Source: an uncultured Clostridia bacterium
GTDB lineage: Bacteria > Bacillota > Clostridia > UBA1381
DNA length: 44,978 nt
Assembly (NCBI GenBank): GCA_905236685.1
Contig: CAJOPD010000058.1
Coordinates: 1 to 44,978 of the forward strand
Reading direction: 5' to 3'
A program made the position numbers and the translations under genes. Below the pieces are notes generated by a model. The model worked only from the letters and a program-made list of their open reading frames with translations, was not told the DNA's origin and did not search any database. Within the stretch, counting starts at the first letter, position 1. The number at the start of each line of letters is the position of its first letter. Positions 29,819-37,688 of this stretch are shown in pieces.

Positions 29819-30700
29819 ATGCGTGAATTTGTGCTGACCGTTCCCGAAGCTTTTGCAAACCGTGAAATTAAACACATACTTAAAAATCATTTCGGCTTTT
29901 CAAGCCGTCTCATAACCGCCTTAAAAGAAGGCGACGGCATAACTTTAAACGGGAAAAAGGAATTTGTGAACAAAAAGGTTTCGTCGGGCGATATTCTTAA
30001 AATCACCCTTTACGACAGGGCCTCAAAAAACATAACCCCTGAAAATATACCCTTGGAAATTTTGTTTGAAGATGAGGACCTGCTCATCATAAACAAGCCC
30101 CCAAAAATGCCGACGCATACATCGGTTTACCATACAACAGGGACCGTCGCAAATGCCGTTTTATACTACTTTAAAGACCGTCCCTTTACCTTCCGCGCAC
30201 CGTCACGGCTTGACCGCGACACATCAGGCGTTTTGATAATTGCGAAAAATGCGTGGAGCGGCGACTGCATTTCCCGCGCCATAAAAAACGGCGAATTTGA
30301 AAAGGAATATTCCGCAGTTTGCGTGGGTACGCCAAAAAACAGAAAAGGCACGGTAAACGCGCCCATCAAACGCGAAAAAGAGGGGATTATAAAGCGGATA
30401 ATAGCGCCGGACGGCAAAAGCGCCGTGACAGAATATGAGGTGCTCTGCGAAAAAGGCGGTCTGAGCCTTATAAAACTGCACCCCAAAACAGGCAGAACAC
30501 ATCAGATACGCCTGCACCTTGCATATATCGGTACGCCCATTTACGCCGATTTTCTGTACGGCAGGGATATTGACGGCGAAAGAATACGCCTGCATTGCAG
30601 CAGCGTGCAGTTTATGCACCCCGTCACAAAGAAAATTATGAAAATTACCGCTCCGCTCCCCGCCGATATGGATATTACAAAATTACAAAAGTCTTTTTAG
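29819..30700 (+). CDS. RluA family 23S rRNA/tRNA pseudouridine synthase (S4 domain plus catalytic domain)
   Basis: SRLDRDTSGV catalytic Asp motif. The ATG at 29819 follows AGAGGTG. The upstream 65 codons of the track ORF lie antisense to the S-component gene and are rejected. Confidence 0.9.
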   Translation: MREFVLTVPEAFANREIKHILKNHFGFSSRLITALKEGDGITLNGKKEFVNKKVSSGDILKITLYDRASKNITPENIPLEILFEDEDLLIINKPPKMPTHTSVYHTTGTVANAVLYYFKDRPFTFRAPSRLDRDTSGVLIIAKNAWSGDCISRAIKNGEFEKEYSAVCVGTPKNRKGTVNAPIKREKEGIIKRIIAPDGKSAVTEYEVLCEKGGLSLIKLHPKTGRTHQIRLHLAYIGTPIYADFLYGRDIDGERIRLHCSSVQFMHPVTKKIMKITAPLPADMDITKLQKSF

Positions 30701-31831
30701 CACACGCTCTATCTTATCTTTCGATGCCAAAATCCTTCCCTCGGCCATATCGTCTTTGCCGCCGCCTTTTCCCGAAAGCTCTGAGTTAAGCGCCTTTGCA
30801 AAGTCTGCGGCGCCGCTTTTTGCGGTAACGATATAGCTGTAACCGATACCGTCGTCACCTGCAAAAACGGCGAATATCCCGCCTATGCGTATTTTTCCCT
30901 CGTTTGCGATGATACGCAGGGCGTTTTTTTCGGTAATATCGGAAAAAATATAAAAATTGCCGTCCGTTTCAGGTATATTCTGTGCTTGCGCCAAAGCAAG
31001 CCTTTTTAATATCCCGTTTTTTTCGCGGTTTGCCGTTTCCAGCTCGTTTTTAAGCTTTGAAACAGCCTTTAAAACCTCATTTTGCGGTACCGACAGCATA
31101 GCGGAAATTCCGTACACGCTTTTTTGTTTTTCCGAATAATCGCAGAGCGCGTCCTTTGCGCATATCATCTTTATCCGAATACCGCCCCTATGGCGCATTG
31201 TTTCGGTAAATTTGATTATGCCCGCCTCTCCCGTCCTTTTGAGGTGCGGCGCACAGCAGGCGCATACATCAATTCCGTCTATCGTAACAATTCTTATTCT
31301 GCCCAAAATGTCGGTTTTGCTGCGGTAATTTATGCTTTCAAGCTCCTTTTCTGTCGGGTAGCTTGCCGATATTTCAAGATTTTTCCATACCGCTTCATTT
31401 GCGAGCCTTTCAAGTTCCAAAAGCTGATTTTCGGTAAGCTCCGCGTCATAATCTATGGTAACGCCGTCTTTATCTAAATGGAAACCGACATTATTAAGCC
31501 CAAAATGCGAAAAGGCTATGCCCGAAACGATATGCTCCGCGCTATGATGCTGCATTTTGCGGAAACGCTCCTCCCAGTCGAGCTCGCCGCTCACCTGTTT
31601 GCCGACTTCAATCGGATTTTTTACAAGATGATAAACCTCGTCATTTTCCAAAATAACCGATAAAACCTTCTGCCCGTCAAGTGTGCCGCTGTCACATTCC
31701 TGACCGCCCGCCGTCATAAAAAATGCCGTTTTGTCAAGCAAAATCAAATACCCGTCCTTATGCGGCACGCACCTTTCTACCGACGCAGTAAAGCTATGTA
31801 TATAACTGTCCTCGTAATATAATTTTATCAT
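30683..31831 (-). CDS. alaX: alanyl-tRNA editing protein (AlaX-type: AlaRS second additional domain plus DHHA1-like C-terminus)
   Basis: HSAEHIVS (HxxxH) and CCAPH (CxxxH) zinc-site motifs of the AlaRS editing domain. The start lies 1 nt after the scfB stop. Confidence 0.85.
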   Translation of the reverse strand: MIKLYYEDSYIHSFTASVERCVPHKDGYLILLDKTAFFMTAGGQECDSGTLDGQKVLSVILENDEVYHLVKNPIEVGKQVSGELDWEERFRKMQHHSAEHIVSGIAFSHFGLNNVGFHLDKDGVTIDYDAELTENQLLELERLANEAVWKNLEISASYPTEKELESINYRSKTDILGRIRIVTIDGIDVCACCAPHLKRTGEAGIIKFTETMRHRGGIRIKMICAKDALCDYSEKQKSVYGISAMLSVPQNEVLKAVSKLKNELETANREKNGILKRLALAQAQNIPETDGNFYIFSDITEKNALRIIANEGKIRIGGIFAVFAGDDGIGYSYIVTAKSGAADFAKALNSELSGKGGGKDDMAEGRILASKDKIERVLKRLL

Positions 31832-31832
31832 T

Positions 31833-33203
31833 TCAGCTCCTCTTTTTAAGCGCCTTGTCCACCTGCATCATAATAGCACATTCCATACGCTTTTTAAAAA
31901 GCTCGCAGCCATATTCATAGACCTTTTCTATATCTCCTGCCGCGTGATACGCGTTCGCCGCACAGCCGCCAGAACAATAGAGCTTCGCCCAGCAGTCACG
32001 GCACTCGGGACGGGAATATGCGTTGCACTTTCTGAACTTTTCGCGGAGCGCGGTGTTTGTAACGCCGTCCCATACATTGCCCATACTGTACTTTTCATCG
32101 CCGACAAACTGGTGGCACGGGAAGAATTCGCCCCACGGCGTGACCGCCATATATTCTGTGCCCGAGCCGCAGCCCGAAATCCGTTTATATATACAGGGAC
32201 CGTTTTCCAAATCTATCATATAGTGATAAAAATTAAAGCCCCTGCCTTCGCTGTCCCTTTTTATCATTTCCTCCGCCAAAATCTCGTACTGCCTGAATAA
32301 AGTCGGCAAATCTTCCTTCGTAAGAGCGCACTCATCATCGGGTGCACAAACCACAGGCTCCATACTGAGCTCGGTAAAGCCCAAGTCCGCCATATGAAAA
32401 ATATCCTTTGTAAAATCGGTGTTTTTATGCGTATAGGTACCCCGTATGTAATAGCTTTTATCGCCGCGCTTTTTGACAAAATCCAAAAACTTCGGCACAA
32501 TTACATCATAACTGCCCTTTCCTTTATAGTCCTTTCGGAAACGGTCGTGCACCTCGCGCCGCCCGTCAAGGCTTAAAACCACATTATTCATTTCCCTGTT
32601 GCAAAAATCGGTTACCTCATCATCGAGCAAAACTCCGTTTGTGGTGAGAGTAAAGCGGAAATTTTTGCCCTTTTCCTTTTCAATACTGCGGCAATATTCC
32701 ACAATTTTTTTGACAACCTCAAAATTCATAAGCGGCTCGCCGCCGAAAAAATCCACTTCAAGATTTCTCCTGTCTCCCGAATTTTCGATAAGGAAATCTA
32801 TCGCCTGCTTTCCGACCTCAAAGCTCATCAAAGCTCTGTCGCCCTTATATTTTCCCTGTCCCGCAAAGCAATAACTGCAATTTAAGTTACAGGTGTGTGC
32901 AATATGAAGGCACAGCGCCTTTACCTCATTATTTTTACCTTTCAGAGTATCCGCCTTATCGGCGTAAATATCCTCGCAAAAAAGCTGTTTTTCCGCCTTC
33001 AAATTTTCTATATCGGCTATGCACGAAAGGACATCTTGCTCCGATATTTCGCACTTTTCGGTGATTTTTCGGACAATTTCATCTTTGCCGCATTTTTCGT
33101 ACATTTCTATAACATTATAGGCAACATCATCAACAGCGTGCACCGCTCCGCTGAAAGCGTCTATAACAATATTATATCCGTTTAATTTATACTGGTGTAC
33201 CAT
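31833..33203 (-). CDS. scfB: SCIFF radical SAM/SPASM maturase (thioether cross-link-forming, ScfB/CteB type)
   Basis: CNLNCSYCF (CxxxCxxC) radical SAM motif and a C-terminal SPASM Cys cluster (CRDCWAKLYCSGGC). The N-terminus MVHQYKLNGYNIVIDAFSGAVHAVDDV is typical of SCIFF maturases. It is adjacent to the SCIFF precursor. Confidence 0.9.
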   Translation of the reverse strand: MVHQYKLNGYNIVIDAFSGAVHAVDDVAYNVIEMYEKCGKDEIVRKITEKCEISEQDVLSCIADIENLKAEKQLFCEDIYADKADTLKGKNNEVKALCLHIAHTCNLNCSYCFAGQGKYKGDRALMSFEVGKQAIDFLIENSGDRRNLEVDFFGGEPLMNFEVVKKIVEYCRSIEKEKGKNFRFTLTTNGVLLDDEVTDFCNREMNNVVLSLDGRREVHDRFRKDYKGKGSYDVIVPKFLDFVKKRGDKSYYIRGTYTHKNTDFTKDIFHMADLGFTELSMEPVVCAPDDECALTKEDLPTLFRQYEILAEEMIKRDSEGRGFNFYHYMIDLENGPCIYKRISGCGSGTEYMAVTPWGEFFPCHQFVGDEKYSMGNVWDGVTNTALREKFRKCNAYSRPECRDCWAKLYCSGGCAANAYHAAGDIEKVYEYGCELFKKRMECAIMMQVDKALKKRS

Positions 33204-33216
33204 ATCTTTCTCCTCA

Positions 33217-33254
33217 TAAAAAATTTGCCGACCGATAGTCTATCAGACGACAAA
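33217..33254 (-). terminator. intrinsic terminator/attenuator between scfA and scfB
   Basis: A 15-position stem (33224-33238 with 33240-33254). On the minus-strand RNA it has 1 mismatch and 2 G-U pairs, versus 3 mismatches on the plus strand. UUUUUU follows, then the scfB RBS GAGGAG. Confidence 0.6.
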
Positions 33255-33268
33255 TTCATAGCTTATAA

Positions 33269-33532
33269 TTATCTGTTTTCACAAGGCTGATTTGCAACTC
33301 CGCAGGAGGTCTTGCACGCCGACTGGCACGAGGTCTGACATTCCCCGCAGCCACCCTCGCAGTTTGTCAAATTCCTTGTTACAAGCGTCACAATTCTTGA
33401 ACCCGCTTCACAAGGCTGATTTACAACTCCGCAGGAGGTCTTGCACGCCGACTGACACGAGGTCTGACATTCCCCGCAGCCGCCCTCGCAGTTTGTCAAA
33501 TTTCTTGTTATCAATGTTTTAATTCTGCTCAT
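33269..33532 (-). CDS. scfA: SCIFF-family ranthipeptide precursor, tandemly duplicated (two leader+core modules, 87 aa)
   Basis: Each half carries the SCIFF signature GGCGECQTSCQSACKTSC...NQPCE, preceded by an SRI(K/V)TL(I/V)TRNLTN leader-like segment. AGGAG RBS is present. It lies immediately upstream of the maturase. Confidence 0.85.
   Translation of the reverse strand: MSRIKTLITRNLTNCEGGCGECQTSCQSACKTSCGVVNQPCEAGSRIVTLVTRNLTNCEGGCGECQTSCQSACKTSCGVANQPCENR
33279..33532 (-). repeat. in-frame tandem direct repeat, 129-nt period, two units
   Basis: Unit starts at 33279 and 33408 (TCACAAGGCTGATTT...). There are 4 substitutions in the first 103 nt. The last ~25 nt of each unit are more diverged. 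Confidence 0.9.
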
Positions 33533-33571
33533 TTTTATTCTCCTTGCATCAGAAAAATCTTAACTGTGACT

Positions 33572-33600
33572 ATTATATAGCCTTTTTTTTACATTGTCAA
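33572..33600 (-). promoter_or_regulatory. consensus sigma-A promoter for scfA (TTGACA-17-TATAAT)
   Basis: On the minus strand, TTGACA (33600-33595), exactly 17 nt, then TATAAT (33577-33572). It abuts the stop of the upstream decarboxylase gene. Confidence 0.6.
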
Positions 33601-33601
33601 G

Positions 33602-34960
33602 TTATTTTTTGACGAGTATCTTATCGTCCCGAATATCACCGAAAAGGTTTAGCCCGCTTTTTTCATATTCGCGCATCTTTTTAACAGCGTTTTCGGTAAT
33701 TTCCTCATCAGGCACCAAAATCGGCACCTCAGGCGGATACGCCCAAAGGTATCCCGCGGAAATCCTGCCGCACGCCTTTTCAATTTCGCAAAATTCACAA
33801 TCCTCCGAAAAGGCATTTTCGTGTTCGGAAAGCGTGCGTTTTGCTTTGTTAATGCTTGTCCTGCCTTTGTCAAGCTTTTTAAGCGACTTTGCGAGCTTTT
33901 TGAGATTTTTGCGGGTTTCCCCCGCGCCCGTCATACAAATCACATAGTGCGGCGCGGTCATTTCAGGCTCTATCCCGCACTTGCGCAAGCCCTCCGCCAG
34001 CTCTGCGCCGCTTTGATTTTTTGGAAAAAGCACAATTTTGCTTTTGTCTATGTCAAAAAATTTGTTATCCGCATTTGTTAAAATTTCAATATTTTTAAGC
34101 GGCAAAATATCTTTATAAAATTTTTCCAAGTTTTTCTCCCAATCGCTGAAAATCGCTTTACCGCGCGTTTTCAGCTCATTTATACAGCCGTCTGCCGACG
34201 AAAGCAGTATATATGACGGACTGCTTGTTTCAAAAACGGAAAGCATTTTTGAAACCGCATTTTTATCAATCAAATTGCCCGAAACATAGCATACTGCCGT
34301 CTGTGTGAGGCTCGGAAGCGTTTTATGAAGGCTCTCGACAGCCGCGTCCGCACCGAGTTTTACCGCGTCCTTCGGAAAATTCCCAAAGCCGAAATGCGCG
34401 CCGTGCGCCGCGTCCACCAAAACGGGAATACCCCGTTTGTGCGCCGCCGCGCAGATTTTTTCTATGTCGCTTATTATGCCCTCATAGGTCGGACTTGTAA
34501 CAATTATCAGCTTTGCGTCGGGATTTTCCTTGATTTTTTGTTCTGTTTCCAAAGGGCTTACCGACCCCGATACTCCGTATTTATTGCTGTTTTCGGGATA
34601 AACAAAAACAGGCTTTGCTCCCGCAAGGCTTATGCCGTTATAGACCGATTTATGACAGTTCCGCGCCACAATTACCTTATCATCTTTTTTGAGCACGGCG
34701 CATATTACCGCCAAAATTCCGCAGGTTGAGCCGTTTACCAAATAAAATGCCCTATCGGCACCCCGCAGCTTTGCCGCCTTTTCCATAGATTTTTTAAGTA
34801 TTCCGCTTGCACTGTGGAGATTGTCAAAGCCCTTGATTTCGGTTATGTCGATATCCGAAAAGGCTTTTAAATAACGGAATTTTTTGCCGTTTCTCTTATG
34901 CCCCGGCATATGCATAGGCGTTTTTTTGTTCTTCTTTAACTTTTCAAATAATTCTTCCAT
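33602..34960 (-). CDS. PLP-dependent Orn/Lys/Arg decarboxylase family protein (fold type I)
   Basis: N-terminal PMHMPGHKRN motif characteristic of the OKR_DC_1 major domain. Length is ~450 aa and it lacks the wing domain, as in Firmicutes YaaO/SpeA-like enzymes. Confidence 0.85.
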   Translation of the reverse strand: MEELFEKLKKNKKTPMHMPGHKRNGKKFRYLKAFSDIDITEIKGFDNLHSASGILKKSMEKAAKLRGADRAFYLVNGSTCGILAVICAVLKKDDKVIVARNCHKSVYNGISLAGAKPVFVYPENSNKYGVSGSVSPLETEQKIKENPDAKLIIVTSPTYEGIISDIEKICAAAHKRGIPVLVDAAHGAHFGFGNFPKDAVKLGADAAVESLHKTLPSLTQTAVCYVSGNLIDKNAVSKMLSVFETSSPSYILLSSADGCINELKTRGKAIFSDWEKNLEKFYKDILPLKNIEILTNADNKFFDIDKSKIVLFPKNQSGAELAEGLRKCGIEPEMTAPHYVICMTGAGETRKNLKKLAKSLKKLDKGRTSINKAKRTLSEHENAFSEDCEFCEIEKACGRISAGYLWAYPPEVPILVPDEEITENAVKKMREYEKSGLNLFGDIRDDKILVKK

Positions 34961-35797: not shown

Positions 35798-37450
35798 TTA
35801 AGCTGTTTTTTTGCCGGTTACTGCCTTTATAACAAGCAAAGTACCAATCATAAGCACTATCGATATGGGAAGTACAATCCATACCGTCTGCACAAAGCCT
35901 GCGATTATGTAGCTCACAAAGGATACCGCCGCAACCGTCAAAGCATACGGAAGCTGTGTGGAAACATGGTTAATATGGTTACACTCAGCACCTGCCGAGG
36001 ACATAATAGTTGTATCGGAAATAGGCGAGCAATGGTCGCCGCAAACAGCGCCTGCCATACAAGCGGAAATAGCAACGATTGTTATGCTGCCCTTATCAAA
36101 GCCGAATACTGCTATAACTATCGGAATTAAAATTCCGAAAGTGCCCCAAGATGTTCCCGTTGCAAAGGACATACCAACTGCAATCAGGAAGATAATTGCG
36201 GGAAGCAGATTCATAAATGAAGATGCGGAATTTCTTACAAAACCGTCAATAAACTCCTGTGCGCCCAAGCTCATAGTCATAGTTTTAAGTGTCCACGCGC
36301 ATACCAAAATCAAAATCGGCGGTACCATAGCCTTAAAGCCTTCGGGAATACATTCCATACAATCCTTAAAGCTCATAACTCTCCTTAACATAAAGAAGAT
36401 AACCGAAAGAATTAAAGTAATAAATGAGCCGTAAACAAGACCTACCGACGCATCGGAATTTGAAAATGCGGTAATAAAGCTTCTGTAACCCTCTTCACCC
36501 TCTGTAAAGAAACCGCCCGAATAAATCATTCCGATTACGCACGCAATAATGAGTACAATTACGGGCAAAACAAGGTCGATAACGCGGCCTTTTGCATTTT
36601 CCTGTCTTTCCTTTATCTCCTCGATTTTTTCCTTTGCCTCTTCAATTACGCCCTTCTTGCCTGCGTCCTTTTCAAACTTCTTCATCGGTCCGAAATCAAA
36701 CTTCATAAGAGTTATTGTTAACATCATAACTATTGTCAAAATAGCATAGAAGTTGTAAGGAATTGCGCTTATAAACAGCTTAAAGCCGTTCATTCCCGAG
36801 CCTTCCGCAAATCCGCTTACAGCCGCTGCCCAAGATGAAATGGGGGCTATGATACAAACCGGCGCTGCCGTTGCGTCAATCAAATATGCAAGCTTTTCGC
36901 GGGAAATTTTTTGTTTTTCGGTAACGGGGCGCATAACGCTTCCAACCGTTAAGCAGTTGAAATAGTCGTCTATAAAGATGAGCACTCCGAGAGCAACCGT
37001 TGCAAGCTGTGCGCCGACCTTGGTGTGAATTCTCTTAGATGCCCAGCGTCCGAAAGCGGCGCTTCCGCCCGCCTTATTCATCATAGCAACCAAAGCGCCC
37101 AAAACAACAAGGAATATCAGAATACCTACATTATAGGCATCTGCAACGCTTGCTATAAAGCCGTCCTGGAAGACATGAACTATTGTCATTTCGGGGTTAA
37201 AGTTTGCGTACAAAAGTCCGCCCGCCAAAATTCCGACAAACAGCGAGGAATAAACCTCCTTCGTGATAAGCGCCAGTGCGATAGCGATTATCGGCGGCAA
37301 CAGCGACCAAAAAGTGCTGTCAAATCTGCTTACATACTCTGCAGCTTCCTCTTCGCCTTCGGCAAAAGCAACTATTGCCATAGCAATCATAAATACAAAG
37401 GTAAGCACGGTAAGGAGTGTAAGCTTTTTCTTTGATTTCAGATTAAACAT
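35798..37450 (-). CDS. nhaC: Na+/H+ antiporter NhaC family transporter (candidate lysine-related transporter)
   Basis: A polytopic 550-aa protein. The ATG at 37450 has GGAGG upstream. The track ORF start at 37573 would run through the riboswitch and terminator, so it is rejected. Confidence 0.85.
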   Translation of the reverse strand: MFNLKSKKKLTLLTVLTFVFMIAMAIVAFAEGEEEAAEYVSRFDSTFWSLLPPIIAIALALITKEVYSSLFVGILAGGLLYANFNPEMTIVHVFQDGFIASVADAYNVGILIFLVVLGALVAMMNKAGGSAAFGRWASKRIHTKVGAQLATVALGVLIFIDDYFNCLTVGSVMRPVTEKQKISREKLAYLIDATAAPVCIIAPISSWAAAVSGFAEGSGMNGFKLFISAIPYNFYAILTIVMMLTITLMKFDFGPMKKFEKDAGKKGVIEEAKEKIEEIKERQENAKGRVIDLVLPVIVLIIACVIGMIYSGGFFTEGEEGYRSFITAFSNSDASVGLVYGSFITLILSVIFFMLRRVMSFKDCMECIPEGFKAMVPPILILVCAWTLKTMTMSLGAQEFIDGFVRNSASSFMNLLPAIIFLIAVGMSFATGTSWGTFGILIPIVIAVFGFDKGSITIVAISACMAGAVCGDHCSPISDTTIMSSAGAECNHINHVSTQLPYALTVAAVSFVSYIIAGFVQTVWIVLPISIVLMIGTLLVIKAVTGKKTA

Positions 37451-37463
37451 AATCTTCCTCCTT

Positions 37464-37501
37464 AAAAATAAAAAAAGTGTGACAGGCAATGCGCCAATCA
37501 C
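37464..37501 (-). terminator. riboswitch expression-platform terminator
   Basis: GUGAUUGGC-GCAUU-GCCUGUCAC hairpin (37501-37479) followed by ACUUUUUUUAUUUUU, just before the nhaC RBS. Confidence 0.7.
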
Positions 37502-37539
37502 AACAAAACCATACCTATTGCGATAGCGCTCCACCTGCG

Positions 37540-37680
37540 GTGACAGTACGGCACATATTTTGTGCCGTCCCAAAAAACGCCTTCGGCAAAAAGCATTTTT
37601 TTCGGCGGCGCCTCCTTTTGCCGTTTTCTGTATTGCCGTACATTAAAAAATGGCTACTTTTAAACGCCGCTCCTCTATAC
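37540..37680 (-). promoter_or_regulatory. lysine riboswitch (L-box) aptamer
   Basis: The minus-strand RNA reads AUAGAGGAGCGGCG..AAAGUAGCC...GGAGGCGCCGCCGAA...UGCCGAAGGCG...GGCACAAAAUAUGUGCCGUACUGUCAC. It matches L-box landmarks recalled from B. subtilis lysC (AGAGGUGCG, GAGUA, GGAGCGUCGCCGAAG, terminal CUGUCA). Confidence 0.8.
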
Positions 37681-37688
37681 ACAAGGCT

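Follow-up and report, generated by a model that had tools for sequence, protein, structure and literature searches.

The window, by which we mean the whole 44,978-nt stretch of DNA analysed here, carries on its reverse strand a single 264-nt ORF (33269-33532), called scfA2. Its 87-aa translation consists of a Met, a 43-aa unit that is present twice, and a TAA stop, and no stop interrupts the frame between the units; the protein reads MSRIKTLITRNLTNCEGGCGECQTSCQSACKTSCGVVNQPCEAG-SRIVTLVTRNLTNCEGGCGECQTSCQSACKTSCGVANQPCENR and then ends. An earlier note on this DNA had described the ORF as Met plus two 43-aa modules arising from an in-frame tandem duplication with a 129-nt period, and both descriptions hold. 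Tandem Repeats Finder gives a period of 129 nt, with 1.8 copies, 96 per cent matches, and no indels, at 33278-33510, a repeat far beyond chance. Each module has seven Cys, as the note had counted, made up of the six that are typical of the SCIFF family and one in the leader (TNC).

Two family profiles identify scfA2 as a SCIFF precursor. TIGR03973 from NCBIfam (121.8 bits, cut-off 50) and PF13165 from Pfam (122.2 bits, cut-off 27) both match it in two separate stretches, which settles the number of domain matches per ORF that the earlier note had proposed to count. The core pattern C-x2-C-x3-C-x3-C-x3-C-x6-C is likewise found in both modules. Every SCIFF family test agrees with this locus except the one for length, since a SCIFF is expected to be a single peptide of ~45 residues and scfA2 has 87 aa in two modules.

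The chain begins with leader 1 (M1-G18, MSRIKTLITRNLTNCEGG; 33479-33532, reverse strand like all parts of the gene), which contains the conserved motif RI.TL.TR.L. Core 1 follows (C19-E42; 33407-33478), with the six family Cys and with Val37 where the consensus has Ala. A three-residue linker, A43-G44-S45 (33398-33406), can be read from the sequence between core 1 and an internal leader 2 that has no Met (R46-G61, RIVTLVTRNLTNCEGG; 33350-33397). The last part, core 2 (C62-E85; 33278-33349), is the same as the family consensus core. AlphaFold2, run with a 13-sequence alignment, produced no confident fold for the 87-aa protein (mean pLDDT 32.6).

When the two 129-nt units are compared codon by codon, nineteen positions differ, fifteen of them in codons 1-9 and 42-43, which encode the leader N-terminus and the junction. 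Coding nucleotides 27-123 contain only four differences (three synonymous and one Val/Ala exchange), so that the central 97 nt of the copies are ~96 per cent identical. The earlier note had reported the same four substitutions and the much greater divergence at the unit edges.

The maturase gene scfB (31833-33203, reverse strand) begins 65 nt downstream of scfA2. Its product, a SCIFF maturase of the radical SAM/SPASM type, is homologous to CteB and scores 752.5 bits against TIGR03974 (cut-off 425), which bears out the claim of one adjacent maturase. Compared with the crystallised CteB (PDB 5WGG/5WHY), the protein is a full-length homologue (residues 1-448, E = 7e-166). Upstream of scfA2 lies a putative sigma-70-type promoter for the scfA-scfB operon (33572-33600, reverse strand), in which TTGACA, a 17-nt spacer, and TATAAT agree with the consensus at 12/12 positions. 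A Shine-Dalgarno sequence, AAGGAG, can be read 7 nt ahead of the ATG (33540-33545, reverse strand).

The spacer between scfA2 and scfB contains a stem-loop followed by a run of six U (33214-33268, reverse strand; MFE -18.5 kcal/mol, z = -2.78 against shuffles). This element may stabilise the mRNA or act as a partial terminator, and in either case it would set the ratio of precursor to enzyme. Seventy-three of seventy-seven scfA-scfB spacers from relatives could be tested, the other four being too short for the fold test, and all seventy-three fold stably. Only one of the seventy-three was flagged by our terminator rule, which combines MFE with a run of U past the last paired base and which misses U-runs paired with an upstream A-run, as in the window spacer.

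No peptidase or exporter gene is present among the eight genes that flank scfA2-scfB, within ~5 kb. An AlaX-like alanyl-tRNA editing gene (30683-31831, reverse strand) begins 2 nt from the scfB stop, a spacing that suggests translational coupling of the two genes. We rejected this gene as a part of the system; the adjacency is common to only three close relatives (L001, L003, L009). Further upstream in the window, a lysine riboswitch (RF00168, 104 bits; 37516-37685, reverse strand) stands directly ahead of a Na+/H+-antiporter-family gene (35798-37573). The window contains no rRNA gene.

Two-module precursors in other genomes

We searched with the 87-aa protein against one genome per GTDB species and kept the eighty best loci. 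Sixty of these (L001-L060) have one ORF with two SCIFF modules, 85-102 aa long as called, and the other twenty have one module; the earlier note had suggested such a comparison of one against two modules in related loci. Exactly one scfB lies directly downstream, 4-290 nt past the two-module ORF (measured from ORF ends to ScfB match starts), in the fifty-eight two-module loci whose contig extends that far. This count leaves out L028, where the ScfB match is split, and L029, where the contig ends too early. Most carriers are MAGs from gut or rumen with the labels Clostridia, Oscillospiraceae, Lachnospiraceae, or Christensenellales. Among the carriers are also the isolate Filifactor villosus CCUG 46385 and a MAG of Filifactor alocis, both Peptostreptococcales. 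All related loci came from Clostridia/Bacillota records.

A protein database independently added thirteen further two-module clusters (P0001-P0013). A single-module profile searched against 1.84 billion cluster representatives identified 1381 SCIFFs, a handful of which have two matched stretches; two was the maximum, and no SCIFF with three or more modules was found among these representatives. The two-module form is therefore rare in the SCIFF family, yet it is a stable state common to many species.

These results bear on whether the repeat arose in assembly, or else by a tandem duplication that is peculiar to this genome, very recent, and selectively neutral. Taken alone, the ~96 per cent identity of the central 97 nt is compatible with a recent event. 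The same architecture, however, occurs in sixty independent species-level assemblies, including that of the isolate F. villosus, with module pairs that have diverged to pS values of 0.12-0.71 and with position-specific leader differences that are common to many species. In the window itself the copies differ at 19 nt and would neither collapse nor expand in assembly, and because the copies can be told apart, short reads can span the repeat unambiguously. Diverged in-frame copies in sixty independent assemblies cannot have their source in assembly error, and we consider this explanation as a whole hardly credible.

The gene immediately upstream of scfA2 (33602-34960, reverse strand) encodes a PLP-dependent protein of the Orn/Lys/Arg decarboxylase family (PF01276). 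The synteny is conserved: in 51/60 two-module loci a PF01276 gene directly precedes scfA in the same orientation, as one also does in L081, L082, and some single-module loci. Twelve of the twenty single-module loci also have a PF01276 match, several of them downstream and with <32 per cent identity.

We surveyed the junction in sixty-one genes, those of the window and the sixty loci. The linkers are 2-6 aa long and contain many T, N, S, and G residues; NTG, NT, ATS, and STG are the commonest forms, and no conserved linker motif was found among the sixty-one sequences. The earlier note had stated that no stop, ribosome-binding site, or start codon lies between the modules of scfA2. This is correct for the stop and the Shine-Dalgarno sequence but not for the start codon, as an in-frame GTG is present at Val48 (33389-33391). 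Internal translation initiation at this GTG could in principle yield two separate peptides. The codon is not preceded by a Shine-Dalgarno-like sequence in the window, though, and it is GTT or GTA in the eighteen other relatives that have Val at this position. A start at Val48 would also strip the conserved R-I from the leader. More generally, the region around the junction is free of in-frame ATG, GTG, and TTG codons in 52/61 genes, and a Shine-Dalgarno-like sequence is present there in just one of the sixty-one. On this survey of junction codons and Shine-Dalgarno sequences we rejected an internal start, which we regard as very improbable. The fusion is one ORF read from one start, and one CteB-type maturase gene follows it.

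Gene conversion and selection in the two modules

The window and the sixty two-module loci provide a set of sixty-one sequences, or 122 modules, in which the histories of leader and core can be compared. For leader DNA, the nearest neighbour of a module is usually the same-position module of another genome (99/122). For core DNA, it is most often the partner module in the same gene (71/122). The two modules of one genome differ with a pS of 0.60 in the leader versus 0.23 in the core, and leader pS exceeds core pS in 56/61 genomes (Wilcoxon p = 1e-10). Between genomes, leader and core have similar pS (0.70-0.81). Codon usage cannot account for the contrast, as each comparison of leader and core is made within one gene pair.

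That leaders of different species are orthologous by position shows the duplication to be old; the greatest similarity of core DNA is to its own partner, which points to gene conversion. The simplest reading of these patterns is that a single old in-frame duplication took place, or a small number of them, and that the centre has been repeatedly homogenised by conversion while the edges escaped. Conversion confined to the core also explains why scfA2 has a near-identical centre next to a diverged leader N-terminus and junction. The earlier note had argued from the mostly silent differences within the window that both halves are under selection. That argument fails, as the pattern reflects recent gene conversion and silent differences in the window are not by themselves evidence of selection.

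The comparison between species leads to the same conclusion by another route. The consensus core GGCGECQTSCQSACKTSCGVANQPCE is matched exactly by 110/122 modules, and the set of six Cys is complete in 59/61 modules at the first position and 60/61 at the second. Core pN has a median of 0 both within and between genomes, at a point where synonymous differences between genomes are near saturation (pS 0.77-0.81). The internal leader retains its motif as faithfully as the N-terminal leader: the residues R/I/T/L/T/R/L are kept in 57-61 of the sixty-one second modules, except at one position, where Leu, Ile, and Val exchange conservatively. Most of these residues are also invariant or near-invariant in single-module SCIFFs. 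Strong purifying selection acts on the two cores and on the two leader motifs in at least sixty-one species, and the note's conclusion that both halves are selected stands on this evidence. Neutral decay of the second module in relatives, which the note had named as a finding that would count against it, was not seen at the species level, where neither half is in decay. Gene conversion alone could keep a non-functional copy apparently intact for some time, but it leaves unexplained why the motif is kept in the position-specific leaders, which escape conversion.

One module has been lost or damaged in a few relatives (L061, L063, P0012, P0015-P0017, P0021), and two modules are thus not obligatory; P0012, P0015-P0017, and P0021 are located on short contigs. 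In L061 (4001-4263; CP091729.1, a complete MAG) a frameshift falls in a T7 homopolymer run between the modules, and the second module is annotated separately as a 47-aa protein (P0019). The frameshift is due either to a sequencing error in the homopolymer or to a genuine disruption. L063 (4001-4135) has a single module with an N-terminus of the module-1 type and a tail of the module-2 type (CENR), and its ScfB is nested in the two-module clade, at 81 per cent identity to the window ScfB. These features fit a deletion by recombination between the repeats, or a repeat collapse in assembly.

A neighbour-joining tree of ScfB places most two-module loci, including the window, in one clade. A Filifactor-type group with longer linkers is placed apart from this clade, so the two-module form may have two origins in a tree whose single-module outgroup is thinly sampled.

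Proposed maturation of the fused precursor

We are fairly confident that the locus is a two-gene SCIFF/ranthipeptide operon whose precursor gene joins two complete precursors in frame, head to tail, in the order leader 1, core 1, short linker, leader 2, core 2. The earlier note had proposed this doubled leader-core arrangement, and the relatives have the same form, with intact cores and one scfB.

Grove and colleagues reportedly found in 2017 that CteB holds the CteA leader with its N-terminal RRE domain, which offers the core to the active site. ScfB could act in the same manner on scfA2: the peptide-recognition (RRE) domain at its N-terminus would dock on one leader after the other, and ScfB would put the Cys thioether crosslink or crosslinks into the core that follows the engaged leader. 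One translation product would then give two modified cores. Since a full leader is under selection in both modules and there is one maturase, such leader-by-leader action is the most economical explanation, and on these grounds ScfB rather probably modifies both modules. No new protease would be required. If a housekeeping protease removes the SCIFF leader, that protease would automatically part the cores as it cut at leader 2; if the leaders stay on, the product would be a two-domain mini-protein.

Alternatively, only one module might be a true substrate, with the other as an accessory that serves as an extended leader, a chaperone-like element, or a decoy that tunes ScfB. Single SCIFFs in vitro gave one thioether despite their six Cys (PMC8326336), and the occasional relatives that tolerate module loss fit an accessory role as well. 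If one module were an accessory, however, the same 24-residue core would not be expected at both positions in sixty-one species; the cores are equally invariant, and the recognition motif is kept in both leaders. Bidirectional gene conversion would, in addition, spread any change that inactivated one module as a substrate. We find an accessory module unlikely.

Another possibility is that the fusion only doubles output, as a polyprotein that a housekeeping protease always cuts into two near-identical SCIFFs of ~43 aa. The modules are indeed nearly identical and are held so by conversion, and the linker is short and variable, with abundant small polar residues. The stem-loop between scfA and scfB could, moreover, favour an excess of precursor over enzyme, which would fit selection for abundant precursor. 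Against a role in dosage, the linker has no conserved cleavage motif, and there is no protease gene nearby. Separate tandem precursor genes, the usual dosage route for RiPPs, are not seen here, and the lack of any SCIFF with three or more modules among 1.84 billion representatives would be odd if dosage alone set the repeat number. We regard a pure dosage effect as somewhat unlikely, though it has more to recommend it than an accessory module.

A more speculative idea, to which we give only a small chance, is that the modified chain including its leader is the functional unit inside the cell, in place of an exported peptide from which the leader has been cleaved. Such a chain might be a thioether-stapled mini-domain that binds metal or has a redox role, and the two-module form would be a two-domain mini-protein, doubled in the way of a ferredoxin. 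Retention of the leader would account for a leader that is nearly as conserved as the core, for a cassette that is never accompanied by a protease or exporter, for an internal leader that is tolerated and conserved, and for a repeat number that stops at two. The clostridial 2x[4Fe-4S] ferredoxin is a small Cys-rich protein classically read as an internal gene duplication, and it resembles scfA2, by analogy only, as a small Cys-rich module duplicated in frame. A PDB sequence search with scfA2 returned only a chance-level, Cys-driven match, to the 2x[4Fe-4S] subunit NuoI (E = 0.13); this match is not significant, and the Cys spacing differs.

Whichever product is formed, SCIFF is among the most widespread RiPP-like cassettes in Clostridia, and a fused precursor with an internal leader in at least sixty-one species, including the culturable Filifactor, is a natural experiment on it. 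It probes whether the maturase uses a leader located inside the chain and whether one enzyme processes two cores per chain. It also probes leader removal: if the leader is removed, the fusion falls apart, and if it is not, a species of ~9 kDa persists. The gene is at the same time a compact case of concerted evolution: conversion reaches only the core, and the divergence of the edges shows how old the duplication is. In current annotation, two-module ORFs bear the name of ordinary SCIFFs, or gene callers have split or truncated them.

Comparison with known systems

SCIFF has been described only as a single peptide of ~45 residues (PMC8326336, PMC8172795, PMC10114670, PMC5300114). Our literature searches found no published tandem, fused, or two-domain SCIFF, in agreement with the earlier note, and the sources that name two-module proteins call them plain SCIFF. 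As far as these searches tell, the two-module SCIFF is undescribed; it is a variant of a known cassette, not unique to this genome and not mechanistically exotic. The earlier note had also called the biological role still unknown. This is slightly dated, in that a 2020 study, cited by PMC8326336, reportedly connected SCIFF with quorum sensing in solventogenic clostridia.

The closest comparison is with the canonical SCIFF/ScfB pairs, CteA/CteB of Clostridium thermocellum and Tte1186a/Tte1186. Each scfA2 module has the same RI.TL.TR.L leader motif, GG, and six-Cys core, the adjacent maturase is of the same radical SAM/SPASM type (TIGR03974), and the locus is likewise a two-gene cassette with no protease or exporter. 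The difference is that the canonical precursor is one ~45-aa peptide, whereas scfA2 has two leader-core modules in 87 aa, with an internal leader that has no Met.

For the canonical SCIFF one thioether has been mapped, at a disputed position, and no leader protease is known (PMC8326336). The acceptor residue in CteA/Tte1186a has been published both as Thr37 and as Thr34 (PMC8326336). The residue equivalent to Thr37, the acceptor reported in vitro, is Gly in scfA2 (SCGVANQ) and in all SCIFFs that we examined, while the equivalent of Thr34 (KTS) is kept in scfA2 and conserved in the others; the Gly bears on the published discrepancy. The donor also varies among two-module SCIFFs. In P0001/L021, P0004/L081 (3077-3355), P0005/L082 (4001-4285), and P0007-P0010, the fourth conserved Cys is replaced by Ser in both modules (by a TCA codon in L081 and L082), and in P0006 it is replaced in module 1 only. 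The fifth conserved Cys is also Ser in P0004, P0009, and P0010. The fourth Cys corresponds to the reported thioether donor of Tte1186a/CteA (Cys32), so these variants are without the only donor that has been mapped. An intact scfB adjoins the Cys-to-Ser genes, and no peptidase domain was found among the called genes of L081 and L082.

Several core copies in one precursor gene are also known from multi-core RiPPs such as cyanobactins of the PatE type, fungal dikaritins, and plant cyclotides (PMC8842026). Their precursors have one N-terminal leader and cores flanked by short recognition sequences, which are processed by dedicated proteases or macrocyclases (PMC8842026). In contrast, scfA2 repeats the whole leader with each core, and its locus has neither conserved recognition sequences, the linker being 2-6 aa long and without a motif, nor a dedicated protease.

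Repeated motifs within one core offer a last comparison. The freyrasin precursor PapA has six CxxxD motifs, and plesiocin-type graspetides have repeated cores. PapB is an example of one maturase that acts repeatedly on repeated motifs in a single chain (PMC8172795). The repeats of PapA and plesiocin are short motifs in one core after one leader, whereas the unit repeated in scfA2 is a complete and autonomous precursor.
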